This document shows, piece after piece, positions 4,373-37,935 of a DNA stretch of 37,935 bases. Location: positions 1 through 37,935 of the IMG/VR virus record IMGVR_UViG_2778261393_000005; one strand, written 5' to 3'. Both the position numbers and the translations under genes were made by a program. Source of the stretch: a virus (Duplodnaviria > Heunggongvirae > Uroviricota > Caudoviricetes). The notes beneath the pieces were generated by a model that was given only the letters and a program-made list of their open reading frames with translations, ran no database searches and was not told the origin of the DNA. Every line of letters starts with the position of its first letter. Position 1 is the first letter of the stretch.

Positions 4373-5341
4373 TTAGTAGGTTATTTTTGTTGCGAATACT
4401 TCGCCTTTTACGATGGCTGTTATGATATTTTTAGCAACATCTTCTGATGCACCAACCTTGATAAGGTCAGCAAGTATTTTGTTATTTACTTCTTTCCGGT
4501 GAGCTTTATCCTTTGCTCTACGCTCTTCTTCTTCCTTGATTCTTTTTTCTTCTGCTATTCTGGCTTGCTCTTTTGCTTCAGCCTCGCGCCGGATTCGTTC
4601 AGCCTCCTCCTGTGCTTTTCGGCGTTCTGCTTCAATTGCCGCCTGCTTTTCTCTTTCAGCTCGTTCTGCTGCCTCTTTTGCTTCGCGCTGTGCTCGTTGC
4701 TCGGCTTCAATGCGTTCACGCTCTGCACGTTCCGCTGCGGCCTTAGCTTCTGCTTCTCGCCTTGCTGCTGCTTCAATTTCGGCTTTTGCCTTTGCTTCGG
4801 CTTCTGCTCTGGCTCTCTCTTCAGCTTCTCTTTTTAAGCGTTCTTCATGCTCTCGCTTTTCCCGCTCCGCTTTGAGTCTTGCCTCTTCTCTTTGGCGGTC
4901 AAATTCGCGATCCATCAAAATCGCTATTTCATGGTCAGACTCAATTTGCTTTGCGAGAGCTTCAGCTGCTGCCTTAGCTTCTTCTTCGGCTTTAATCCGT
5001 GCCTGTTCCTCCTCATAATCAGTAAGAGGCTGGCGCGCCTTGGCTTTCAGCTCATCAAGGCGATCACGCACTGTCTTGCGGTTGGCATCAATTAGCTTTG
5101 GAATTTCCTTCAGTTCAGCAACAAGGTCTTTGCCAAGACCATCGAGATATGTTTTCGTCTGCGCAACTTTATACGCCAGAGAAGCGATCTCCTTTCTGCC
5201 CTTTGCCGTTGTGATATCAGGCACAAAGGACATAACTTCACGTTCAACCCTTTGAAGGATTTCTTCAATCTGGTCGGCAGACTGAAATACAGTCATTGCA
5301 TTTGCTTTTTCAATAACAACTAAATCTGTTACTTCACTCAT
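4373..5341 (-). CDS. Hypothetical coiled-coil protein with long E/A/R/K-rich low-complexity repeat
   Basis: ATG 5341-5339 (MSEVTDLVVIEK...) with GGAGGA SD; about 150 aa of near-pure EAKR repeats; underlying DNA is repetitive (gcttc/gctgc). Confidence 0.55.
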   Translation of the reverse strand: MSEVTDLVVIEKANAMTVFQSADQIEEILQRVEREVMSFVPDITTAKGRKEIASLAYKVAQTKTYLDGLGKDLVAELKEIPKLIDANRKTVRDRLDELKAKARQPLTDYEEEQARIKAEEEAKAAAEALAKQIESDHEIAILMDREFDRQREEARLKAEREKREHEERLKREAEERARAEAEAKAKAEIEAAARREAEAKAAAERAERERIEAEQRAQREAKEAAERAEREKQAAIEAERRKAQEEAERIRREAEAKEQARIAEEKRIKEEEERRAKDKAHRKEVNNKILADLIKVGASEDVAKNIITAIVKGEVFATKITY

Positions 5342-5353
5342 ATATCCTCCGTC

Positions 5354-5382
5354 AAAAAAATTGCCCTCACACTGGAGGGCAA
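5354..5382 (-). terminator. Rho-independent terminator (leftward), between ral and the coiled-coil gene
   Basis: Minus-strand hairpin TTGCCCTC-cagtgt-GAGGGCAA followed by TTTTTTT. Confidence 0.5.
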
Positions 5383-5516
5383 AGAAGATTTCCAATAATC
5401 AGAACAAGTCGGCTCCTGTTTAGTTACGAGCGACATTGCTCCGTGTATTCACTCATTGGAATGAATACACAGTGCAGTGTTTATTCTGTTGTTTATGCCA
5501 AAAATAAAGGCTACCA

Positions 5517-5795: not shown

Positions 5796-6122
5796 TCAAA
5801 TAAGTGGTTTGCTGCCTAATTTCATTTTCTGGCGACCAACACAAGTCACCCCCATTTCACTGCGTGGCTTGCTGTACCATGTGCGCTGATTCTTGCGCTC
5901 AATACGTTGCAGGTTGCTTTCAATCTGTTCGTGGTATTCAGCCAGCACCGTAAGGTCTATCGGATTCAGTGCGCTTTCTACTCGTGATTTCGGTTTGCGA
6001 TTCAGCGAGAGAATAGGGCGGTTAACTGGTTTTGCGCTTACCCCAACCAACAGGGGATTTGCTGCTTTCCATTGAGCCTGTTTCTCTGCGCGACGTTCGC
6101 GGCGGCGTGTTTGTGCATCCAT
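5796..6122 (-). CDS. N: Antitermination protein N
   Basis: MDAQTRRRERRAEKQAQWKAANPLLVGVSAKPVNRPILSLNRKPKSRVESALNPIDL... (arginine-rich motif, lambda N-like); ATG 6122-6120 with AGGAG SD; the ORF-track N-terminal extension is discounted. Confidence 0.85.
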   Translation of the reverse strand: MDAQTRRRERRAEKQAQWKAANPLLVGVSAKPVNRPILSLNRKPKSRVESALNPIDLTVLAEYHEQIESNLQRIERKNQRTWYSKPRSEMGVTCVGRQKMKLGSKPLI

Positions 6123-6350: not shown

Positions 6351-6396
6351 AATATACCTACAGGTAAAGCCCCTGTCTATACCTGTAGGTAAATAA
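6351..6396 (-). promoter_or_regulatory. pL promoter with OL operators
   Basis: Minus strand -35 TAGACA, 17 nt, -10 TATATT; two TACCT-N2-AGGTA palindromes (plus 6356-6367, 6381-6392) overlap the -35 and -10; a third half-site lies near 6409-6417. Confidence 0.6.
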
Positions 6397-6452
6397 AATT
6401 GATGTGAGAGTTTACCTGCTTGAATTTTCAGGTAATTAATTTTTTGGATTGA

Positions 6453-6477
6453 TATAAAAAAGCCCGCTTTGCGGGCT
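6453..6477 (-). terminator. Rho-independent terminator ending the cI operon (leftward)
   Basis: Minus-strand hairpin AGCCCGC-AAA-GCGGGCT followed by TTTTTTAT, 11 nt after the stop of ORF 6489..6803. Confidence 0.6.
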
Positions 6478-6488
6478 GAAAGGAGATG

Positions 6489-6803
6489 TCAGAAGCTATT
6501 TGGATTGCTTGGCCATTGCGGCAATTTTGATTCTACTGGGGTGTGTTTGGGTTTGAGTCCGTTTAAGTAGTCAAGGCGCTCAATGGCGCATTTATACATA
6601 GCAATCTGCTCTGATGACATGTCGTCGTATGACATGCCTTTGAACTTTTTAATTATCGATTCTGCCTCATGTATAAGATTCTTCTTCCTCATGAGTTCAG
6701 CTGTATGCTTAGAGCTTACAGGAGATAACTTTGCCCATATGAAGCAGATGATTACAACAGCGACTACTATGCCGGGTATAAACATTTGCTGCTTTATCCT
6801 CAA
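6489..6803 (-). CDS. Small single-pass membrane protein co-transcribed with cI (candidate exclusion/immunity-region moron), 104 aa
   Basis: ATG 6803-6801 overlaps cI stop 6802-6800 (ATGA); N-terminal hydrophobic helix IPGIVVAVVIICFIWA; occupies the rexAB slot between cI and pL. Confidence 0.55.
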   Translation of the reverse strand: MRIKQQMFIPGIVVAVVIICFIWAKLSPVSSKHTAELMRKKNLIHEAESIIKKFKGMSYDDMSSEQIAMYKCAIERLDYLNGLKPKHTPVESKLPQWPSNPNSF

Positions 6804-7486
6804 ACTTTTGGCAGATCGTCCTGGTCTACGTACCTGGTGTGTTTCACAATAGCTGAAACAAAATGCATTTTATCAACTTCTTCAACAGGAAGAGTGATTG
6901 GGCGGTGATCACTGTTTATGCTACTAAACTGATAATCACCGTCTCTTGTTTTGTTCATGATCTTTATCATGTTGTGACCGTCTTTGGTCCTTACAAAGAC
7001 TTCATCACCTGGATGTACTGGCGTATTTGGTTCAATAACAACATATTCTCCTGACTGAATCCTTGGCCACATGCTGTCACCCTTAACCTTCAGACCGTAA
7101 GCATCTTTATCGCCGCTGTAGATGCTTAACCAACCGGATCTGAATTCAATCATATCCACTGAGCCATCAACTCCCAAAACGGCTTCACCAATTACCGGAA
7201 CAAAACCCGCACGAACGTTACCCGCAAACTCAAGATGGTCCGTAGCTCCAGCTTTACCATCTGCAAGCATGTCCATCCATCCGCGTGGGAGATTAAAAGA
7301 TTTTTCAATTAGTTCCATCATATCGTCAGCAATGCGTTTTTTTCCGCTTTTTCCTTCCGGATACAGCATTCTGGAAACGTATGATGGTTCCCTTTCTATT
7401 CGACGAGCCAACTCTGAGGCCTTTCCATTACAGAATCGGTCTCTTATCTCTATCAGCCTTAGTCGTCTTTGTTCGTATTTATCCAT
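6800..7486 (-). CDS. cI: CI repressor (HTH N-domain plus LexA/S24-like autocleavage domain)
   Basis: 228-aa ORF with Ala-Gly site (DGKAGATD), catalytic Ser context GDSMWP and downstream Lys; start about 20 nt from OR3; divergent from cro. Confidence 0.85.
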   Translation of the reverse strand: MDKYEQRRLRLIEIRDRFCNGKASELARRIEREPSYVSRMLYPEGKSGKKRIADDMMELIEKSFNLPRGWMDMLADGKAGATDHLEFAGNVRAGFVPVIGEAVLGVDGSVDMIEFRSGWLSIYSGDKDAYGLKVKGDSMWPRIQSGEYVVIEPNTPVHPGDEVFVRTKDGHNMIKIMNKTRDGDYQFSSINSDHRPITLPVEEVDKMHFVSAIVKHTRYVDQDDLPKV

Positions 7487-7506
7487 GATTTAATTCTATC
7501 TTTGAT

Positions 7507-7562
7507 TACCTGCCGGTAAATAACCTATGGGTATTGATTTGCTTTTTACCTACAGGTAAACT
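7507..7562. promoter_or_regulatory. OR1-OR3 operators with divergent PR and PRM promoters
   Basis: Palindromes TACCTGCCGGTA (7507-7518), AACCTATGGGTA (7522-7533), TACCTACAGGTA (7547-7558); PR -35 TTGATT (7534-7539), 17 nt, -10 TAAACT (7557-7562); cI ATG lies right after a TAGAAT-like PRM -10, suggesting a near-leaderless cI mRNA. Confidence 0.65.
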
Positions 7563-7594: not shown

Positions 7595-7825
7595 ATGGAA
7601 GAACTCCGCTTGTATCTGAACTCCCTTTCACTGGAAGAGCAGAGAGAATTTGCCACCAAGTGCGGAACTTCTATCGGCTATTTGAGGAAAGCACTTAGCC
7701 GTAATCATGAATTGGGCGCAGCACTTTGTGTTCTGATTGAGAAGTTCAGCAATGGTGAAGTGACTCGCAAAGACCTTCATCCGGTTGATTGGGAAAGCAT
7801 CTGGCCTGAATTAATGGCCGCTTAA
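7595..7825 (+). CDS. cro: Cro-like repressor, 76 aa
   Basis: First gene right of OR with GGAGA SD; HTH-like segment TKCGTSIGYLRKAL. Confidence 0.75.
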   Translation: MEELRLYLNSLSLEEQREFATKCGTSIGYLRKALSRNHELGAALCVLIEKFSNGEVTRKDLHPVDWESIWPELMAA

Positions 7826-7941: not shown

Positions 7942-8223
7942 ATGGGTACTATTGCAACTAAAAGCAAGAAAGCGGCTCGCATCGAGTCAGCCTTGCTGAA
8001 CAAACTGGCACTGATGGGGCAGAAGGCATTCGCTCGAGCAATGGGGGTTCCTGAATATCAGGTAAGCCGATGGAAGAATGGTTTCTTCTCGCAGGTAAGC
8101 ATGATGCTGGCTGTTCTGGAATACGGAATCGAAGACGATGAAATGGCTGAATTGACTAAGCGGATTGCCGATTACCTGACAAAAGAAAAAGCCCCGAAGA
8201 ACGGCGAATTCTTCGAGGCCTGA
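7942..8223 (+). CDS. cII: CII transcriptional activator
   Basis: ...ARIESALLNKLALMG...QVSRWK...MLAVLEYGIEDDEMAEL... resembles recalled lambda CII (RIESALLNKIAMLG...QISRWKR...MLLAVLEWG); AAGGAA SD. Confidence 0.85.
   Translation: MGTIATKSKKAARIESALLNKLALMGQKAFARAMGVPEYQVSRWKNGFFSQVSMMLAVLEYGIEDDEMAELTKRIADYLTKEKAPKNGEFFEA
8181..8215 (-). terminator. Minus-strand rho-independent terminator inside the cII 3' end (oop-like antisense RNA terminator candidate)
   Basis: Minus-strand hairpin CGAAGAA-ttcgccg-TTCTTCG followed by GGGCTTTTTCTTTT; antisense to cII C-terminal codons. Confidence 0.4.
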
Positions 8224-27708: not shown

Positions 27709-28175
27709 TGGAAATAAAGCTCATCGATAATCCGGTGAAGCTTGCAGAATTCCTCAACAACCCAGAAAACACGGGAAATATCGTAGACAGTGGAGACAAA
27801 TACTACATCAAGCCTGATGCGGTATATCTCGGCATCTACGAAGGATTAGTGCTGGCTGGCGTTCATGAAGTGCGTAACTTCTGGCATAGCGTTGTTGAAT
27901 GCCATGCGGTGTACGACCCCGGATTCCGTGGTGAATATGCACTGCAAGGGCATCGATTATTCTGCAAATGGCTTCTCGAAAACTCACCATTCCTTAACAG
28001 CATCACCATGGTTCCTGACACAACGAAATACGGACGGTCAATTATCCGTTTGCTTGGCGCTACCCGTGTTGGTCACCTTGATGATGCGTACATGAGTAAC
28101 GGAAAACCGGTTGGAATCACCCTCTATCAATTACCTCGTTCGAAATATGAGGAGCTATTAAATGTTAGTACTTAG
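27708..28175 (+). CDS. P22 gp14-position protein (unknown function)
   Basis: ATG 27708 with GGAG SD; synteny after the needle gene. Confidence 0.5.
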   Translation: MEIKLIDNPVKLAEFLNNPENTGNIVDSGDKYYIKPDAVYLGIYEGLVLAGVHEVRNFWHSVVECHAVYDPGFRGEYALQGHRLFCKWLLENSPFLNSITMVPDTTKYGRSIIRLLGATRVGHLDDAYMSNGKPVGITLYQLPRSKYEELLNVST

Positions 28176-28821
28176 CGAAAGCTTCAAGAATAAATTGCTT
28201 CCCATGAATGGGTATATGAAAGGCGGCAGCGACTCCGGCTCAAAAGCCCAGGCACGCGCAACTGAAAAGGGTATCGAATTGCAGCGTGAAATGTGGCAAA
28301 CGAACATGCAAAACCTTGCACCGTTCACGCCACTCGCTCAACAGTACGTATCAGAGTTGCAGAATCTTTCCTCTCTTCAGGGGCAAGGTCAGGCGCTTAA
28401 CCAGTATTACAACTCCCAGCAGTACAAAGACCTTGCTGGACAGGCGCGTTACCAGAGTCTGGCAGCAGCAGAGGCAACGGGTGGATTAGGCTCTACAGCA
28501 ACAGGAAACCAGTTAGCAGCAATCGCACCTACGCTCGGTCAAAACTGGCTGTCAGGTCAGATGAACAACTACAACAATCTGGCAAATATCGGCCTTGGTG
28601 CTCTTACAGGTCAGGCAAACGCCGGACAGAACTACGCTAACAATGTCAGCCAATTGTATCAACAGCAGGCGGCAGCATCTGCGGCTAATGCGAATAAACC
28701 ATCAGGATTTCAGAGTGCCTTGGGTGGAGCGGCGGCAGGTGCAGCTGCAGGTACTGCAATCATGCCTGGTTGGGGTACAGCAATTGGTGCTGGCGTCGGT
28801 CTTCTTGGTTCACTTTTTTAA
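28162..28821 (+). CDS. Ejection (internal virion) protein, P22 gp7-like
   Basis: 219 aa, Gln/Ala/Gly-rich with hydrophobic Gly-rich C-terminus; synteny. Confidence 0.6.
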   Translation: MLVLSESFKNKLLPMNGYMKGGSDSGSKAQARATEKGIELQREMWQTNMQNLAPFTPLAQQYVSELQNLSSLQGQGQALNQYYNSQQYKDLAGQARYQSLAAAEATGGLGSTATGNQLAAIAPTLGQNWLSGQMNNYNNLANIGLGALTGQANAGQNYANNVSQLYQQQAAASAANANKPSGFQSALGGAAAGAAAGTAIMPGWGTAIGAGVGLLGSLF

Positions 28822-28833
28822 TGGAGGTGTCTC

Positions 28834-30135
28834 TTGGCTACATGGAAACAGGCTGGTAATTCAGGCGCGCTTCTTGCCGGGTTAGGCGGCATGAACTCCA
28901 ACGCTCCAAGAGCAAGTGATGCAGACGCCACGCTTGCATACATTCGACAGAATAACGAGATGGAGCGTTCAGGACGTAATAACGTTGGCTTGCAGGCTTT
29001 GCAGGGCATTTCATCTGTCATGGATATGTATAAGCAGATGGATCAGCAGAAGCGACAGCAAGAGTTTCAGCAGGCTTATGCTGATGCATATACATCTGGT
29101 GACCGCGATGCAATGCGAAAACTGGCATCACAGTATCCTGAGCAGTTTGACGCTGTAAGAAACGGCATGAAATTTGTCGATGAAGACCAGCGTTCCACTG
29201 TCGGTACACTGGCAGCAAGTGCCAGACTCGCAGCTTCATCTCCAGAAGCCATGATGTCATGGTTGCAGAACAACTCATCTGAGCTTACTCGTGCCGGAGT
29301 AGACCCTCTGGATGTGGCGAAAATGTACCAGCAAAATCCACAAGGTTTCACAGAGTTTGTTGATCACCTTGGGATGGCTGCGCTTGGTCCGATTGATTAC
29401 TTCAATGTTCAGGACAAGATGGCTGGTCGTGAAATTGACCGAGGCAGACTGGCAGAGACAATCCGCAGCAATCAGGCTGGAGAAGCACTAACAGCTCGAG
29501 GTCAGGACATCCAGATACGTGGACAGAACATCAGCGCACAGAATGCTGCTCTTTCCCGAGAAATACAAAGAGCAGAATTACAAGAAAAGGCTCTGGACAG
29601 ACAGATAGCAAGAGAAAGCAATCAGTTAAAGCTTGAAGAGCTAAAACAGAAACAGGCAGATGTTCGGCAAAAGGCTGACATAGCCCGCGCTGACAGGCAG
29701 GCCGCCGCTCAGGGTGCAGTTGATACGTTCAGCACCGCGCTTGATTCTCTCAACGAGATAGAGCAAAGCCCCGGCCTTCCAAAAGCAGTAGGAATTCGCT
29801 CAGCGTTTCCGACAGTTCCTGGCTCTGATGCGGCTAACTTTGAAGCAAGGCTCGACACCTTTAAAGCTCAAACATTCCTTCCTATGGTGCAGTCCCTGAA
29901 GGGTATGGGCGCTCTTTCAGATGCTGAGGGTAAAAAATTATCCGATGCGGTTGGTGCCCTAAGCCCCAAAATGAGCGAAAAGGCTTTTCGTGACTCTATC
30001 GGAAAGATTCGAAATCAGCTTGAAAGCAAGTTGAGCACTGTTAAAAAACAGTTTGATTATCAGGAGCCAGTGCAGAATATGCCAGCGCAACAACCTACTA
30101 CTGGCAGTAATTTTTCTTCACTATGGGGTGATTAA
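28834..30135 (+). CDS. Ejection protein, P22 gp20-like
   Basis: 433 aa; apparent TTG start at 28834 with GGAGG SD 6 nt upstream; synteny. Confidence 0.6.
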   Translation: MATWKQAGNSGALLAGLGGMNSNAPRASDADATLAYIRQNNEMERSGRNNVGLQALQGISSVMDMYKQMDQQKRQQEFQQAYADAYTSGDRDAMRKLASQYPEQFDAVRNGMKFVDEDQRSTVGTLAASARLAASSPEAMMSWLQNNSSELTRAGVDPLDVAKMYQQNPQGFTEFVDHLGMAALGPIDYFNVQDKMAGREIDRGRLAETIRSNQAGEALTARGQDIQIRGQNISAQNAALSREIQRAELQEKALDRQIARESNQLKLEELKQKQADVRQKADIARADRQAAAQGAVDTFSTALDSLNEIEQSPGLPKAVGIRSAFPTVPGSDAANFEARLDTFKAQTFLPMVQSLKGMGALSDAEGKKLSDAVGALSPKMSEKAFRDSIGKIRNQLESKLSTVKKQFDYQEPVQNMPAQQPTTGSNFSSLWGD

Positions 30136-32132
30136 TGGCTAAAGCATGGAAAGATGTTATCGCCTCTCCACAGTATCAGGCGTTAGCACCAGAACAAAAA
30201 GCGCAGGCTCAGGAGCAATACTTCAATGAAGTCGTTGCCCCGCAAGCTGGAGAAAATGCAGAGCAGGCCAAGCAAGCTTTCTATGCTGCCTATCCATTGC
30301 CATCTGTGCAGCCAGTGGAGACACAGCAACCAGTAGCACAGCAACAACCACAGCAAAGTGGGTTTATGTCTGATCTTGGCGAAGCAGTAAAAGAGACTGG
30401 TCGCGGACTGGTGCAGGCTGGCGTGAACGTAGCAAACATACCTGCATCAGTTGCCGATGCTGTAACAAGTGCGGCGGCATGGGCCGGCGGTAAACTCGGT
30501 ATTGGCGATGGAACATACCAACCAGCGCCACGAGTAACAACGCAGGGATTAGAGCAGGATTTTGGCCTTCAGCAAGGCGCGCTGACTCCACAAACGACAG
30601 AGGGAAGGGTATTTGCTGAAGCATTGCCTTACCTTACCCCTGCTGGCATTGAGAGAGCGGCAACACAGGCACCAACACTCGCTGGTAGAATCGCTCAGGG
30701 TGCAACTCGCCTTCTCGCTGAAAACGCAGTCGGGTCACTTGCTGCAAATAGTGCGAAAGATGATGCGGAAGCACTCGCTACCGATTTAGGCGTTGGCGTT
30801 CTGGCTGGCGGCGCTATTAACGCTGCCGGACGTGGATTAGGTGCTGCTTATCGTGGTGTTCGTGGTTCGATAGCACCAGAAGCGCAACAGGCTATCAGAT
30901 TTGCAGAGCGTGAAGGAGTTCCTCTGCACACCACAGACCTGTTACAACCCACTTCCCGCGTCGGAAAAATGGCGCAGACTACAGCAGAAAATATCCCTCT
31001 GGCTGGCACAAGCGGAATGAGAGCAACGCAACAAGAAGCGAGAAGCCAGTTGGTGCAGAGATTTGCCGATAAATTCGGTGAGTATGATCCAGCGGTTGTT
31101 ATTGACAGCCTTAAAGCGAAAACATCAGGAATTCGTCGTGCCGCCGGTAATCGACTGGAGCAGGTTCAGAATGCTATGGCTGGAGTAAACATTCAGCCTG
31201 CGCGAGCAATTCAGCAGATTGATACAGAAATATCTAACCTGCAGAAGCTTGGTAAGGTTGCTGATAACGAGACTATTTCAAAACTTCAGTCCTATCGTGA
31301 TGAGCTTGTTCGCAATGCTGGCCCTGATGGTCCGGTAAATCTGGATTTGAAGCAATTAAGCGATCTGCGCAGCCAGTTCAGAATGGACGTGAAGGGTGAG
31401 CGACCAGTGTTACCAAACCGTTCCGATGCTGCCATTCAGCGCGTTTACAAGGCAATGACTGACGATATCAATGGTGCCATTGGTCAGAATCTTGGCAACG
31501 ATACTCTCCGTAAATATCAGCAGGCCAATGCCGTCTACGCTGACGAAGCGGCAAAACTAAAGAATACCAGGCTGAAGAATGTTCTCATGAAAGGCGACCT
31601 GACGCCGGAAGTTGTCAACAACATGCTATTCAGCAAGAACAAATCGGAAATTAAGACTCTGTATAACTCAGTTGGTCGTGTTGGCAGGGCGCAAATGCGC
31701 AATGGCATCATTGGAAAGGCGATGGAGAAATCAGGTGGTTCACCTGACCAGTTCCTTCGACAGCTTAACATCCTGCAAAACCAGACTGGCATCACATTTA
31801 AAGGTCAGGATGCTGCTTATCTGAAAGGATTGAAAAACTACCTGCAATCTACGCAACAGGCTGCAAAAGCAGCAGTAACAACACCAACAGGGCAGCAAAC
31901 CATCCCGTTCATTATCGGGTATGGGACGGCAATGAACCCGGCGACAACTGGCGCAGCAGTAAGCTACGGACTTCTTACTCGCGCCTATGAGAGCGAGCCA
32001 TTCAGAAATGCAATGCTCCGAATGGCAAACACCCCACGCGGATCAACATCTTTTGAGAAAGCCATGCAGCAGGCACAAAAGGCTATTAACGCTATGGCGC
32101 AGGGGGCTAAGTCTGATGTGTTGTCAGAATAG
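30135..32132 (+). CDS. Ejection protein, P22 gp16-like
   Basis: 665 aa; last gene of the ejection-protein trio by synteny. Confidence 0.65.
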   Translation: MAKAWKDVIASPQYQALAPEQKAQAQEQYFNEVVAPQAGENAEQAKQAFYAAYPLPSVQPVETQQPVAQQQPQQSGFMSDLGEAVKETGRGLVQAGVNVANIPASVADAVTSAAAWAGGKLGIGDGTYQPAPRVTTQGLEQDFGLQQGALTPQTTEGRVFAEALPYLTPAGIERAATQAPTLAGRIAQGATRLLAENAVGSLAANSAKDDAEALATDLGVGVLAGGAINAAGRGLGAAYRGVRGSIAPEAQQAIRFAEREGVPLHTTDLLQPTSRVGKMAQTTAENIPLAGTSGMRATQQEARSQLVQRFADKFGEYDPAVVIDSLKAKTSGIRRAAGNRLEQVQNAMAGVNIQPARAIQQIDTEISNLQKLGKVADNETISKLQSYRDELVRNAGPDGPVNLDLKQLSDLRSQFRMDVKGERPVLPNRSDAAIQRVYKAMTDDINGAIGQNLGNDTLRKYQQANAVYADEAAKLKNTRLKNVLMKGDLTPEVVNNMLFSKNKSEIKTLYNSVGRVGRAQMRNGIIGKAMEKSGGSPDQFLRQLNILQNQTGITFKGQDAAYLKGLKNYLQSTQQAAKAAVTTPTGQQTIPFIIGYGTAMNPATTGAAVSYGLLTRAYESEPFRNAMLRMANTPRGSTSFEKAMQQAQKAINAMAQGAKSDVLSE

Positions 32133-32201
32133 CTTCGCAAACACCAGGAACGTGCAAAAACCAAATATGTAGAACGCAATATTCAGCATATCTCTTTGCA
32201 T
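32124..32201 (-). CDS. Candidate 25-aa hydrophobic peptide downstream of mnt
   Basis: GGAGGA then ATG (3-nt spacer) MQRDMLNIAFYIFGFCTFLVFAKLF; overlaps gp16 3' end on the opposite strand; speculative. Confidence 0.2.
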   Translation of the reverse strand: MQRDMLNIAFYIFGFCTFLVFAKLF

Positions 32202-32220
32202 AAATCCTCCGTAACTGAGG

Positions 32221-32481
32221 TTAGCTGCTGTCTTTTTTATATAGCTCCTTGAGCGTATCAAAGACAATTTTCTTAACCATATCAGATTGTTGTTCTGCCA
32301 TACGCTCTGCATCGTCAATGTAAACTGATGCAGAGCTTTGTTTAGCCAATGATTCTTCAATCGCTGCAATTATCTCTGAGTTCAGCGACCTGTTATTCAT
32401 CTTCGCGCGCTGTTTAATTTTCGCGTGGAGTTCATGCGGAAGTCTCAAGTGAAACTGCGCCTCGTCGTATTTGCTGTACAT
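32221..32481 (-). CDS. mnt: Mnt-like ribbon-helix-helix repressor (Arc/Mnt family)
   Basis: ...AQFHLRLPHELHAKIKQRAKMNNRSLNSEIIAAIEESL...DAERMAEQQSDMVKKIVFDTLKELYKK matches recalled P22 Mnt (PHFNFRMP...NGRSMNSE...DAERLADEQSELVKKMVFDTLKDLYKK); alternative upstream ATG at 32514. Confidence 0.7.
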   Translation of the reverse strand: MYSKYDEAQFHLRLPHELHAKIKQRAKMNNRSLNSEIIAAIEESLAKQSSASVYIDDAERMAEQQSDMVKKIVFDTLKELYKKDSS

Positions 32482-32602
32482 CCTTGATGCCTCACCAGTT
32501 GGGTGGAATGGCATCGTAACCTACTGGATAAATACTCAATAGTACCATTTCGGTATGCAATCACATCATGGTTGCATCATATCATTCGTCTGGAGCAATG
32601 AA

Positions 32603-34546
32603 ATGTCAGATATCACCGCAAATGTTGTGGTAAGCATGCCTTCGCAACTCTTCACTATGGCTCGTTCTTTTAAAGCCGTAGCCAATGGCAAAATTTATAT
32701 CGGTAAAATTGACACTGACCCTGTAAATCCTGAAAACCAGATTCAGGTTTATGTGGAAAACGAAGACGGCTCTCACGTTTCTGTTGCACAGCCAATCATC
32801 ATTAACGCTGCTGGATATCCGGTATATAACGGGCAGATTGCCAAATTCGTAACTGTGCAAGGCCATTCTATGGCTGTATATGATGCGTATGGCGCGCAGC
32901 AGTTCTATTTCCCTAATGTGCTGAAATATGACCCTGATCAATTTCAGGAAAGATTGCTATCTGAAAATGGGCCATTATTAGTTGATGATTCAGTTGTTCG
33001 TGTAAAACAACCCCTCTCTATGGCAATCGAGAGAGCACAGCACGATAAAAATGCAGATTTTGTGAGCGCGAAAGACTTTGGGTTTAAAGGTGATGGCACG
33101 AATGATGATGCTGCGGTGCTCAAACTTAAAGATTACGTTAACACAAGACCTAAATATTCTCCACCAGTATCCGTGTACTTTCCAGATGGAAATTATCTTA
33201 TTAGCGAGTCATTGAATTTAATTAGACCTGTTACTTTATACTCTTTTAAAGGAGCAACAATAAACTATACTGGAACTGACGCTGCAGTTAAGTGTGGAGA
33301 TCCAACTGACGAAGATCAACCAACAGCAGATAATTTTTATCAAGGTGATTATGTAATTTATGGAATTAGATTCACTGGTGGTCAAAATGCAAAGTTTGGA
33401 ATAATGGTAAAGAGCTTTGTTTTTACACCAAAAATACAATATTGTGATTTTATTGATTATGGCAATAAGGATTCTTATGATATATATGCTCAGTTTGAAA
33501 ACTGGGATATCCTTATAGAAGGATGCTATAAAAAAACATTTTTTAGTGATATTGCAATAGGTAGTTTCATTTCTTTACCTGGTAAAAAAACGGATGGCAG
33601 TGCATATGATGGTGGGAACTCTAGAGTTACAATAAGAGATTGCTCCATGACAGCATATAACAATCAAGATTTAGGATATTTTGCCTATATTAACTGCGTT
33701 AAGGGGCGAGTAATTGGAGGTAGTGCGCATCACTCTACAGGTGGAATACTACTTGGACCAGCGGCATCTGGAACGCTTATTGATGGATTTTATTGTGAAG
33801 TAAGTACTCAACACAGACCTTGGGTAATATCTGTTTTAAGTGATAAAACTAATCCTGATAATTATTTGTTCCCTCAGTCTGTTACGGTAAGAAATGTGTA
33901 TGTAAATATGCATAAAGAAAAAATTGGTAATGCTGGTAAGCTTATTGGTGTCATGGATGCTGATGTGAAGTTAAGAGACTGGAGTGTAACAGACTGCCAG
34001 ATTTCAAACTTCGAAAATGGTCAAGTTCTTATTGATAGAAATGATCTTAATGAGCAGATCGGTAACACTTATGCAAGAATAAAACCAATTTTTGTTCCTT
34101 ATAATTCTGGTGGTGGAAGTAAATTTATTGTTACTGGAAAACTAACAACAGCAGAAGACTGGTCGTGTGGTGATATAGAAACTGGAGTTTGGATTCCGAC
34201 TGTAGGCGGAAATGCCTCCTACTATAAACAAGTTGGAAGTTATACAAGAACTGGTGATGTAGTGACCGCAAGTTTTCACATAGGGATAACGATTATTGGA
34301 AGTGGAGATGGTTATAGGATAGGTGGATTACCTTTTTTGTCACGACCAGGGGCTACTTCTGTTGGATCTATTGGGTATTACAATAACTTAACTACGGCTG
34401 TGGCTGCGCTATTGCCTAGGGTTGATGCTGAAAGTAATTACATAACATTTACAGGAGCTACATCTGTCGCTGGTAATATGAATGTACAACTAAATGTTCT
34501 AGGTAATAATGCTGAGATAATTGGTTCTGTTACTTATTTTATATAA
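32603..34546 (+). CDS. Tailspike protein: P22-type N-terminal head-binding domain plus divergent beta-helix receptor-binding domain
   Basis: [59 protein letters not shown]...[10 protein letters not shown] matches recalled P22 gp9 N-terminus; GGAG SD 8 nt upstream; C-terminal two-thirds visibly AT-rich; ORF-track start 32555 discounted. Confidence 0.9.
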
Positions 34547-34578
34547 AAACAGCGGCGAAATTGCCGCTGTTTTTTTAG
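34545..34578. terminator. Bidirectional rho-independent terminator between tailspike and acetyltransferase
   Basis: AAAAAC-AGCGGC-gaaatt-GCCGCT-GTTTTTTT: hairpin flanked by an A-run and a T-run. Confidence 0.65.
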
Positions 34579-34606
34579 TATTGATAATGTTGGTGGACAA
34601 AATAAA

Positions 34607-36607
34607 CTAATTAATTACAAAGCCGTTATCATTAAGTATTTCTTTAACACCAGATTTAGATAAGTGAAAACCAACATTATATAATCCGCCGTTATGGTCA
34701 ATTATTCTACAACCATTGTCATCACATAAAGTTTTTATAGGTTTTATCTTATGCAATCCTTTCATGTCAGGAATATATTTATCTAATATATCGGATTGTT
34801 GTTTTGCTAAGTTAAGCCCATTTCTGCTGCTTGTGTATGTTGTCTCAAACTTATAATTGATAGATCTTAGTTTTGAGAATACTATGTTGGCAACATCTTC
34901 AGACGGATTAGGGGTTGGGTATACAATATATACATCATGCCCCTTGGACACGAGTTTCTTAACATTATTCGATAGAGAGATATATGCCTGCTCGCCACCT
35001 AAAAAATCTCCGCCACTAAAATTTTGCTTCGCCATCTCTAAAGGAGATGACACAGGAGCCTTAGCAAGCGGGAATTGATCATAATTAGCAGCTATAAAAA
35101 TAGTTTTCTTACCCTTAAGAGAATCAATGGCTTTCCATCTTTGCTCATTGACAACCACACATTCAGGAACATTGCCAAACCACATATCACTCACAAATGG
35201 ACATTGCTCATACGTGAGAGATAACATCCCTTTGTTATTTTCTTTTGAGTAATCTAAAATTGTTGGTGCATATTGTCCAGCATAGCTATCTCCTAATACG
35301 ATGATGTCATCACCGCCAAAGCTACACGGGTTATCAAGAGAACGTAAACCACATAAATAACTATCAGGTTCACCTCTTAAACTTTTACCAATATTTGAAT
35401 AATCTGCCAATTTCCTGAACTCTGGTTCTTTGTACATTTCATAGGTTTCTTTCAGAATGCCTGCAAGACGCCACTGAAAACCCCCATCGGCCTTTGCATA
35501 AATAGAGAAAGCAAGCAATGCTGACAGAGATGTTGCTAATACTATTGTATTCTTACTTTTAACATGTTTTGCTCTATATGGTTTTTCAATAAAAAAATAT
35601 GAAAAAGACGAAATAACAATTGAAATTGATGCTAATACTACACAGTAATAAGGAGTGATATTTTCACTAAATAATATCCTGTAAAAAACAAAAACAGGTT
35701 GATGCCATAAATATAGAGAATATGATATCAAGCCAATAAAGACAATCGGACGCAAGGATAATATTTTAGATATTAAATCGGCACCATTTGCAAATGCGAT
35801 TATCAAACATGAACCAGCTACAGGTATTAGGGTGATAAATGAAGGGTGTTTGATGTTATTTCCAAAAAACAACATTGAATAAACAATCATCAACATTCCA
35901 ATTACTGGCAGAAACGAAGTTAAAGATGATTGGTCTTTATGTATATTGCTTCTTCTTTCTTTTACAAAAAAAGACACAATTCCACCAAGAATTAATTCCC
36001 ATGCCCTTGGTAGTAGCGTATAGAATGCTAAGTCAGGGTAACTGCTAACTATAATATTTGCATACACAATAGATGAAACAGAAATCAATATAAGAAGTAA
36101 TACTCTGTATTTCTTAATAAATTTATTTATAAAAATCAATAAGAATGGATAAAATACGTAGAATTGCCATTCAACAGCAAGACTCCATGTATGAAGGAGT
36201 GGTTTAAATATACTTGCATTTGATACATAGCTATCTTCACCAAGAAAATAATAATTAGAACCAAAATAAATAGCAGAAATGAGAGATTCAGAGAATTTTA
36301 CTAAGTCATTTGGTAGAAGAATTTTATAAGCCACTATCGATGTAACTACAAGCATAGCAATAAGAGCAGGAACAATTCTCTTTATGCGTCTCCAATAGAA
36401 GTCAGTTAGTGAGAAAGAGCGGCTATCAAGTTTATTTATAATGATATCTGTAATTAAATATCCTGAAAGAACCAGGAAGACATCAACTCCAAAGAATCCG
36501 CCTTTGAATATCTTTACTCCAAACAAAGAAATGCCAGAGTGATAAATGATGACAGCCATCACTGCCAAACAACGCAATCCATCAAGCTCTTTCCTATACT
36601 TAAGCAT
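34607..36607 (-). CDS. oac: O-antigen acetyltransferase, acyltransferase-3 membrane domain fused to SGNH-type domain (Oac/OafA-like)
   Basis: 666 aa; multiple TM helices; N-terminal acyltransferase-3 pattern (RKELDGLRCLAVMAVIIYH...FFGVDVFLVLSGYLIT); C-terminal soluble region with GDSY (VLGDSYAGQY); very AT-rich. Confidence 0.75.
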   Translation of the reverse strand: MLKYRKELDGLRCLAVMAVIIYHSGISLFGVKIFKGGFFGVDVFLVLSGYLITDIIINKLDSRSFSLTDFYWRRIKRIVPALIAMLVVTSIVAYKILLPNDLVKFSESLISAIYFGSNYYFLGEDSYVSNASIFKPLLHTWSLAVEWQFYVFYPFLLIFINKFIKKYRVLLLILISVSSIVYANIIVSSYPDLAFYTLLPRAWELILGGIVSFFVKERRSNIHKDQSSLTSFLPVIGMLMIVYSMLFFGNNIKHPSFITLIPVAGSCLIIAFANGADLISKILSLRPIVFIGLISYSLYLWHQPVFVFYRILFSENITPYYCVVLASISIVISSFSYFFIEKPYRAKHVKSKNTIVLATSLSALLAFSIYAKADGGFQWRLAGILKETYEMYKEPEFRKLADYSNIGKSLRGEPDSYLCGLRSLDNPCSFGGDDIIVLGDSYAGQYAPTILDYSKENNKGMLSLTYEQCPFVSDMWFGNVPECVVVNEQRWKAIDSLKGKKTIFIAANYDQFPLAKAPVSSPLEMAKQNFSGGDFLGGEQAYISLSNNVKKLVSKGHDVYIVYPTPNPSEDVANIVFSKLRSINYKFETTYTSSRNGLNLAKQQSDILDKYIPDMKGLHKIKPIKTLCDDNGCRIIDHNGGLYNVGFHLSKSGVKEILNDNGFVIN

Positions 36608-36777
36608 TAAGTTTTCTCTCTACATATAATGCGAAATTTCGCGTGATTCTATCACATTCATTCTAAAAGTTGTTCCGAGCCATAAAATTGAGTCAACACA
36701 TTGTATGATACTGAAATGTAAAATTTGTTTGTGTCGATCTACAAAATTGTGCATATCTCTTAGGTTGGATATGAGGA

Positions 36778-37935
36778 TTACAGCACACTTTCATCAAGCC
36801 AGTCCGCCCACCACTGCATCATTTCTCTGCGCTTATCGAGATACTGAGCATGGTTGTAAATACCGCGCACAGATCCTCCGTTGGCATGTGCCAGTTGCAC
36901 TTCAATAGCGTCAGCAGGCCATTCGTGCTCGTTCATAATCGTGCTGAATTCATGCCTGAATCCGTGACCGCTTTCCAGACCTTCATAGCCGATTTGTTTG
37001 ATCACAAGCAGTACCGCGTTCTCGCAGATTGGCTTCTTCTTATCGTTGCGTCCGGCAAAAACAAACTCTGATACTGGTTTAGTGATTGAGCTTAGCGTAG
37101 TGAGAAGTTCAACCACCTGGTCTGACATAGGAACAACATGAATCTTGCGGCCCTTCATCACACTGGCGTCGATAGTGATAATCCTGTTTTCAAAATCGAC
37201 GTTCTTCCATTGCATGGAACGAAGCTCTTTTGTTCTGAGGGCTGTGTAGCGTAAAACTTTGGTCGCAATGAGCGATACGATACTTCCTGAAAATGTTGCC
37301 AGTGCTTTGTTGAATGCCGGGATCTGGTCTGCAGGAAGAAACGGGAAGTTCTTCTTGCGGTATCCCTTCATGGCGTCAGCAAGGTCAGGTGCCGGGTTAT
37401 ATTTAGCCCTTCCGGTGACAATAGCGTAACGAAAAACCTCGCCGCATCTTCTGCGGGCTTTGTTGGCTCGCTCCATTGCACCGCGATCTTCAAATCTGCG
37501 GATTACTTCCAGCAGTTGCATCGGCTCAATATCCTGAATCTCAAGACCGCCGATGATGGGTAAAATGTCGTCATCAAACATTTTGGCAAGTTCAGTTGCA
37601 TAGCCTACTGACCAGACTTGCTTCTTGTGCTCGTACCATTCCTTGTAAATCGCACTAAATGAATTGTTGTTAGACGAAGCCTTTTTCGCCTTTACCGGAT
37701 CGATGCCAACCGAGATGTCTTTCCTCGCAGTCCATGCCTTATCCCTTGCTTCCTGCAAAGTCATAAGCGGATATTTTCCGACGGTCAGGATTTTCTCTTT
37801 ACCGTCAATCTTGTAGCGAAGCTGCCATACCTTTTTCCCGGATACAGGAACATAAAGGTACAGGCCATTACCATCGAGAAGGCGGTATGGTTTTTCTTTC
37901 GGCTTTGCTGCTTCAATTTGCTTAACGGTGAGCAT
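36778..37935 (-). CDS. int: Tyrosine integrase (P4-type; IntS-like)
   Basis: 385 aa; P4-family N-terminus MLTVKQIEAAKPKEKPYRLLDGNGLYLYV; catalytic region ...HGFRHEF...VQLAHANGGSVRGIYNHAQY; ATG is the last three bases of the window. Confidence 0.9.
   Translation of the reverse strand: MLTVKQIEAAKPKEKPYRLLDGNGLYLYVPVSGKKVWQLRYKIDGKEKILTVGKYPLMTLQEARDKAWTARKDISVGIDPVKAKKASSNNNSFSAIYKEWYEHKKQVWSVGYATELAKMFDDDILPIIGGLEIQDIEPMQLLEVIRRFEDRGAMERANKARRRCGEVFRYAIVTGRAKYNPAPDLADAMKGYRKKNFPFLPADQIPAFNKALATFSGSIVSLIATKVLRYTALRTKELRSMQWKNVDFENRIITIDASVMKGRKIHVVPMSDQVVELLTTLSSITKPVSEFVFAGRNDKKKPICENAVLLVIKQIGYEGLESGHGFRHEFSTIMNEHEWPADAIEVQLAHANGGSVRGIYNHAQYLDKRREMMQWWADWLDESVL

Follow-up and report, generated by a model that had tools for sequence, protein, structure and literature searches.

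In phage lambda, the rexAB genes are found between the repressor gene cI and the left operator OL, within the cI operon. The window analyzed here (the whole 37,935-nt stretch of viral DNA) holds at the same place a single small open reading frame (ORF), which raises the question of what it does in the lysogen. The original prediction was that of a membrane protein made together with the repressor and acting, perhaps, against other phages. We addressed the question through the anatomy of the locus, the family of the protein, the genomic contexts of its relatives, structure prediction and evolutionary rates. The window carries a lambdoid immunity region at 5.8-8.3 kb, in which cI, the ORF and N lie on the minus strand, with the following features:

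7942-8223, plus strand: cII homolog
7595..7825, plus strand: Cro-type repressor gene, divergent from cI (PHROG 35, E=7.5e-16; Cro in the mEp043 annotation)
7507-7518, 7522-7533 and 7547-7558, no strand assigned: OR, three operator copies related to TACCTGTAGGTA, from the operator scan
7493..7520, minus strand: PRM-like promoter TTTACC-16-TAGAAT (consensus match only)
6800..7486, minus strand: cI-type repressor gene, 228 aa, S24 peptidase/LexA-like (Pfam PF00717 Peptidase_S24, E=1.4e-17; PHROG 4, transcriptional repressor; cI/repressor in the mEp043 annotation)
6786..6803, minus strand: cI-ORF junction, with TTG 6803..6801 overlapping the cI stop codon TGA 6802..6800, then GAGGA 6801..6797
6489..6785, minus strand: coding sequence of a predicted membrane-anchored protein of 98 aa, from its likely start ATG 6785..6783 to TGA 6491..6489 (member of PHROG 10450; gp49 of phage mEp043)
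6451..6477, minus strand: intrinsic terminator AGCCCGC-AAA-GCGGGCT plus TTTTTTATAT, closing the cI-ORF unit (dG -12.6 kcal/mol, z=-3.5)
6351..6436, no strand assigned: OL/pL region, with two perfect operators, a pL-like promoter and a wider inverted repeat (same layout in L012, L020 and L021)
5796..6122, minus strand: lambda-type antiterminator gene N, first gene of the pL operon and left edge of the immunity region (Pfam N36, E=1.5e-26)

The ORF does occupy the rexA/rexB slot assigned to it, on the cI strand between cI and OL and bracketed by OL and OR. It also lies downstream of cI in one unit, as proposed: both genes are on the same strand, the promoter and terminator scan of the stretch from cI to the ORF returned no terminator and no convincing promoter, and a terminator follows. 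The hairpin of the latter (7 bp, G+C-rich, with a T-run; 6477..6461) begins exactly 11 nt after the ORF stop codon, the distance originally given, and precedes the operators and the pL-like promoter (6379..6351, minus strand, 10/12 match). This terminator is kept in the window/mEp043 and L020 lineages and is absent in L012 (4295-4320) and L021 (4295-4320), where OL comes almost directly after the ORF stop. At the head of the unit, the -10 element of the PRM-like promoter ends 6 nt 5' of the cI ATG, so that the cI mRNA would be leaderless or near-leaderless.

The 12-bp operator TACCTGTAGGTA gave 32 matches in the window versus 14.8 expected, its perfect and two-mismatch copies being confined to the OL and OR clusters; OL holds two perfect palindromic copies (6355-6366 and 6380-6391). 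Between the terminator and these two operators lies an inverted repeat, TTACCTG-N10-CAGGTAA (6412-6435), which is conserved in L012, L020 and L021 and consists of operator half-sites with a spacing 10 nt wider; it may represent an unusually spaced third operator or bind another protein. Elsewhere in the pL operon, a 340-aa protein (4373-5395, minus strand) contains a long, highly charged repeat region rich in Glu, Ala, Lys and Arg, and its mEp043 counterpart is annotated as 'TolA' or Sf6 gene 33-like. Scans of the window for Rfam families and tRNAs were empty.

The protein had initially been assigned to no family. This stands for the curated collections, in which sequence-profile searches of Pfam, NCBIfam and PDB gave no meaningful match for the 98-aa protein, and no PADLOC-DB 2.0 family was matched at E<=1 by the window protein or by any of three distant homologs. 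It does not stand for PHROG 10450 (labeled function unknown), to which the protein belongs: ORF residues 7-104 cover positions 1-98 of this 98-position profile with E=4.6e-54. The group joins mEp043 gp49 and ORF14 of N7, a P22-like phage, and N7 ORF14, P0009 and P0011 match its profile. A word-indexed protein search with the single sequence retrieved only relatives at >=94% identity, while an exhaustive HMMER search against 1.84 billion representatives reached relatives at 33-43% identity, and the profile search gathered 22 proteins, in E. coli, E. fergusonii and Salmonella. Members are 97-114 aa long and their alignment contains eleven invariant residues (H27, K34, I38, E40, A41, M56, C66, A67, L71, W91 and P92). 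The HMMER matches P0008, P0012 and P0015 (proteins of 1300 aa and 350 aa, each matched over several short stretches) were set aside as probable coiled-coil or low-complexity hits. Used as a query, P0006 matched no viral or metagenome contig, and in genome contigs its sole match was a fragment of 17 residues.

The relatives are found in two genomic contexts. Diverged members in L012, L020 and L021 lie 3-5 nt past a cI gene whose product is 84-87% identical to the window cI, and precede the same OL layout and N. The other subfamily, marked by the C-terminal motif WPxW[FY], is present at ten loci, which represent nine lineages since two loci encode the same protein; seven P22-like phages or prophages carry it, as do a short contig (L018) and a remnant (L007). 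All ten copies adjoin ejection-protein genes: at 9/10 loci the gene directly faces, in convergent orientation, the gene-16 homolog or a cut ORF in its place, and the L007 copy lies near gp7/gp20 remnants. This is the position of the sieA slot of P22, between genes 16 and 9, and tblastn with SieA types A and B found neither at the ten loci nor in the window. The gene is located downstream of mnt, on the same strand, at six of the ten loci (five lineages), and some P22-like loci have it without mnt upstream; in N7 the only promoter-like site on its strand lies upstream of mnt, with no intervening terminator. sieA itself is present in only 22/66 P22-like phages (Leavitt et al. 2024, PMC10883804). 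The P0009 copy in L007 (4449-5747) sits in a degraded P22-like remnant beside genes for a T6SS Hcp and a Tlde1-domain protein.

The window prophage likewise has a P22-type virion module, with the ejection proteins gp7, gp20 and gp16 and a tailspike:

28162..32132, plus strand: P22-type ejection-protein genes 7, 20 and 16 (Pfam P22_gp7, E=3.5e-91; Inj_translocase, E=7.2e-73)
32221-32514, minus strand: Arc/Mnt-like ribbon-helix-helix ORF, the sole ORF of the sieA/immI slot of the window (32133-32554)
32555-34546: tailspike gene
34607-36607, minus strand: AT3-SGNH O-antigen acyltransferase gene
36778-37935, minus strand: integrase gene

The prophage is thus a mosaic, in which a lambda-type N and an mEp043-type immunity region are combined with a P22-type virion (28162-37935). 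According to ORF calls and, for SieA types A and B, tblastn, its 32133-32554 slot contains no ant, arc or sieA. The immunity cassette and that of mEp043, a lambda-like siphovirus with a cor gene, share 98.7% identity; in mEp043 the ORF is gp49, annotated as hypothetical. As the same ORF is found in the lambda-like mEp043 and in the P22-like window prophage, it travels with the immunity module and not with the virion type.

Structure prediction agrees with the single N-terminal hydrophobic helix and charged C-terminal part that had been described. The hydrophobic segment FIPGIVVAVVIICFIWA has a mean Kyte-Doolittle value of 2.84 (17-residue window from Met1), and AlphaFold2 (AF2), run with the family alignment, returned a model (pLDDT 79.4, pTM 0.58) composed of a helix spanning residues 5-47 (anchor and stalk), a loop, a second helix spanning residues 58-76 and an ordered tail containing W91-P92. 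In Foldseek, no structure in PDB or BFVD matched the AF2 models below E=1, a null result that is expected for a simple helical hairpin and makes the fold search uninformative. Lys and Arg residues are absent before the anchor in all members except P0018, whose called start includes an N-terminal extension, and 1-4 of them lie within the 15 residues that follow; from the positive-inside rule, we infer a cytoplasmic C-terminal domain. The sequence of the anchor varies across the family and the conserved residues fall in the predicted cytoplasmic part. The product would therefore be a 98-residue inner-membrane protein with one N-terminal anchor helix (approximately residues 2-18), its N-terminus out and its C-terminus in. 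The cytoplasmic part of about 80 residues would comprise the stalk helix, a loop with a conserved S-[WY]-x-x-M, a second helix with a conserved C-A-x-x-R-L and a tail with the invariant W-P.

Across the four cI-linked lineages, three genes of the immunity region evolve at contrasting rates:

cI: protein identity 84-98%, omega 0.02-0.05
cro: protein identity 88-99%, omega 0.03-0.09
ORF: protein identity 40-70%, omega 0.24-0.28

The ORF protein is thus constrained, yet its rate of change is 5-10 times that of the neighboring cI and cro. Rapid change of a protein next to slowly evolving neighbors is the usual pattern for genes that face other phages.

From its position, architecture and evolutionary pattern, we tentatively propose that the ORF encodes a lysogen-expressed, single-gene superinfection-exclusion protein of the inner membrane, a reading we regard as a little short of an even call. 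Placed last in the repressor operon (PRM/PRE, cI, ORF, terminator), with a start 14 nt past the cI stop, the gene is predicted to be expressed constitutively at a low level in lysogens. The protein would disturb the last step in the entry of an incoming phage genome, as a functional analog of P22 SieA and HK97 gp15; by this analogy, the block would most likely occur at passage of the genome across the inner membrane. The earlier exclusion interpretation is partly supported, in that the distant homologs in the sieA slot strengthen it without proving it. Because the cI slot and the sieA slot also house genes with other roles, the argument from these slots is circumstantial. Moreover, only 1-2 residues are predicted outside the cytoplasm and the conserved residues are on the cytoplasmic side, so that direct contact with a periplasmic conduit would be impossible.

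None of the known exclusion or defense proteins compared showed homology to the 98-aa protein. P22 SieA (PHROG 7745) is also a small inner-membrane protein expressed from a prophage, lysogen expression and membrane location being predicted for the ORF product, and in P22-like phages without sieA one PHROG 10450 subfamily takes up the exact sieA slot (on the mnt side of immI and in convergent orientation to gene 16). SieA has been demonstrated to block DNA injection, and escape mutations map to gp16/gp20. Aligned with P22 SieA in hhalign, the family obtained a probability of 0.3%, PHROG 7745 was not matched by the ORF, and the SieA motif FxRYPxEAxxFNK is absent from the family alignment. SieA differs further by its size (164 aa or longer, about 160-210 aa) and its several transmembrane segments, against 98 aa and one for the ORF product, and the window copy follows cI instead of gene 16 although the window prophage is P22-like. 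The most conserved motif of SieA is also predicted to be cytoplasmic (PMC10883804).

HK97 gp15 has a comparable layout, with an N-terminal anchor from residue 2-3 preceded by no positive charge and followed by K/R and a charged helical tail, and its gene is likewise a single-gene module followed by its own terminator. There is no homology between the two in hhalign (probability 0.5%); gp15 has 62 aa as opposed to 98, and its gene lies inside the tail gene cluster whereas the ORF is in the repressor operon. The likeness to lambda RexA/RexB is one of location downstream of cI, inside the immunity region and with a terminator before OL, the transcription being presumably alike. Rex consists, however, of two genes, for a multi-pass RexB and a cytoplasmic RexA acting by abortive infection, while here a single gene encodes one transmembrane helix; Pfam gave no Rex-family match at E<=1 for the 98-aa protein. 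Sie2009 and T4 Imm are small membrane-anchored proteins too, and Sie2009 is encoded in the lysogeny module beside the repressor. Neither has a Pfam or PHROG cross-match with the ORF, and they differ in that the host of Sie2009 is Gram-positive and that T4 Imm belongs to a lytic phage and has two transmembrane helices. Sie2009 is cited as an injection blocker (PMC10883804).

It is possible, a shade less so than the assignment of the window protein itself, that PHROG 10450 as a whole represents a new, non-homologous family of single-gene superinfection-exclusion proteins at the cytoplasmic face of the inner membrane. Its genes would form a portable cassette joining any lysogeny-maintenance operon at hand, downstream of cI in lambdoid immunity regions and downstream of mnt beside the ejection-protein genes in P22-like phages, and may replace SieA in those P22-like phages from which it is missing. 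If these are exclusion proteins, the very few inner-membrane entry blockers known from Gram-negatives (SieA, HK97 gp15 and T4 Imm) would be joined by a further family, which could account for the content of the sieA slot in some sieA-less P22-like phages and would offer a small and tractable means of probing how phage genomes pass the inner membrane, a step that is poorly understood.

The predicted topology would be roughly as compatible with a sensor for abortive infection, or with a cytoplasmic regulator, as with an entry block. In the first of these cases, the membrane-tethered cytoplasmic domain would sense a component of the infecting phage and disturb the membrane or a host process, the cell dying or stalling without phage release. 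Lambda Rex works in this way from the very slot occupied by the ORF, and a defense gene next to a prophage repressor has a precedent in BstA; the conserved residues, which lie behind a variable anchor in what is predicted to be the cytoplasmic domain, and an evolution faster than that of the neighboring genes would also fit. We nevertheless consider such a post-entry defense unlikely, as one transmembrane helix and an 80-residue helical domain offer no recognizable effector or pore-forming feature, PADLOC and Pfam returned no match, and the placement of homologs in the sieA slot favors entry exclusion.

Just as doubtful to us is a role other than phage exclusion, in which the protein, anchored in the membrane, would modulate the induction or maintenance of the prophage alongside cI and Mnt, or would be a lysogenic-conversion factor modifying host envelope physiology. 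A cytoplasmic domain, as predicted, would be in keeping with such a modulator, and the gene does lie downstream of a same-strand maintenance repressor gene, namely cI in four lineages and mnt at six loci of five lineages. In E. coli, the ORF is moreover strictly linked to one cI allele: each was found in 52/5426 complete genomes, and their accessions coincide among the matches listed. A partner of cI and cro would, however, not be expected to diverge far faster than they do, nor is an accessory of one repressor easily reconciled with the presence of the family beside the unrelated cI and Mnt, and at some P22-like loci without mnt upstream. Pfam, in addition, detected no DNA-binding or regulatory domain in the 98-aa protein.

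Under the exclusion reading, the product is taken to start at ATG 6785..6783, and here the original prediction requires correction. It described a 104-aa protein whose start codon forms an ATGA overlap with the cI stop. The 104-codon frame is indeed open on the minus strand (6489..6803), but the overlap reads TTGA, an in-frame TTG (6803..6801) overlapping the TGA of cI (6802..6800), and the product is more likely one of 98 aa that starts 14 nt past the cI stop. ATG 6785 is the likely start because the PHROG profile begins at residue 7, because homologs share an N-terminus of the form M/V-[FYW]-I-[PS] in the family alignment, and because GAGGA (6801..6797), which overlaps the cI stop, lies 11 nt 5' of this ATG. 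The literal 104-aa model, with strict termination-reinitiation coupling and an MRIKQQ extension that would turn the topology to N-in, is improbable: the overlap of TTG with the cI TGA does exist and a 315-nt version is annotated in one mEp043 record, but TTG 6803 has no Shine-Dalgarno sequence before it, the profile and all homologs begin at residue 7, and the three other cI-linked lineages, with their gap of 3-5 nt after cI, lack an MRIKQQ-type extension. TTG 6803 is probably an alternative start that is not used.

Close coupling of the 98-aa ORF to cI translation is plausible with the 14-nt gap of the window. Its translation may be weak, given the long spacing of 11 nt between the Shine-Dalgarno sequence and the ATG and the replacement of this ATG by GTG as the probable start codon in both mEp043 records (L001/L002, at the position equivalent to 6785). 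GTG is also the start in the homologs P0007 and L012, which suggests that weak initiation is habitual.

The 98-aa ORF is a real gene under coding selection. Compared with the most diverged E. coli allele, it shows 11 substitutions, of which 7 are synonymous and 4 conservative in the ORF frame, while only 0/11 and 2/11 are synonymous in the two remaining frames. Its omega (Nei-Gojobori) is 0.13 within E. coli and 0.24-0.28 between deep lineages, at which synonymous sites are saturated; gene-wide dN/dS stays below 1 in this analysis, giving no support for positive selection. That the ORF is spurious or decaying, a non-coding spacer between cI and OL left open by chance, is a far-fetched reading, suggested by the lack of a RefSeq (PGAP) coding sequence in 28/30 E. 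coli genomes among the matches listed, including strain MB19, where the ORF is 100% identical to that of the window, and essentially excluded by the frame-specific substitutions, an omega of 0.13-0.28, homologs at 33-43% identity whose frames are intact and whose invariant residues are kept in both genomic contexts, and a confident helical AF2 model.

About 1% of complete E. coli genomes carry the allele of the window and about another 1% the N7-type allele of the sieA slot (57/5426), a gene that RefSeq mostly omits. Three of the places of the N7-type allele are on plasmid records, for example NZ_CP081694.1 (29.7 kb), perhaps a phage-plasmid of the P22-like kind or a phage genome that has not integrated.
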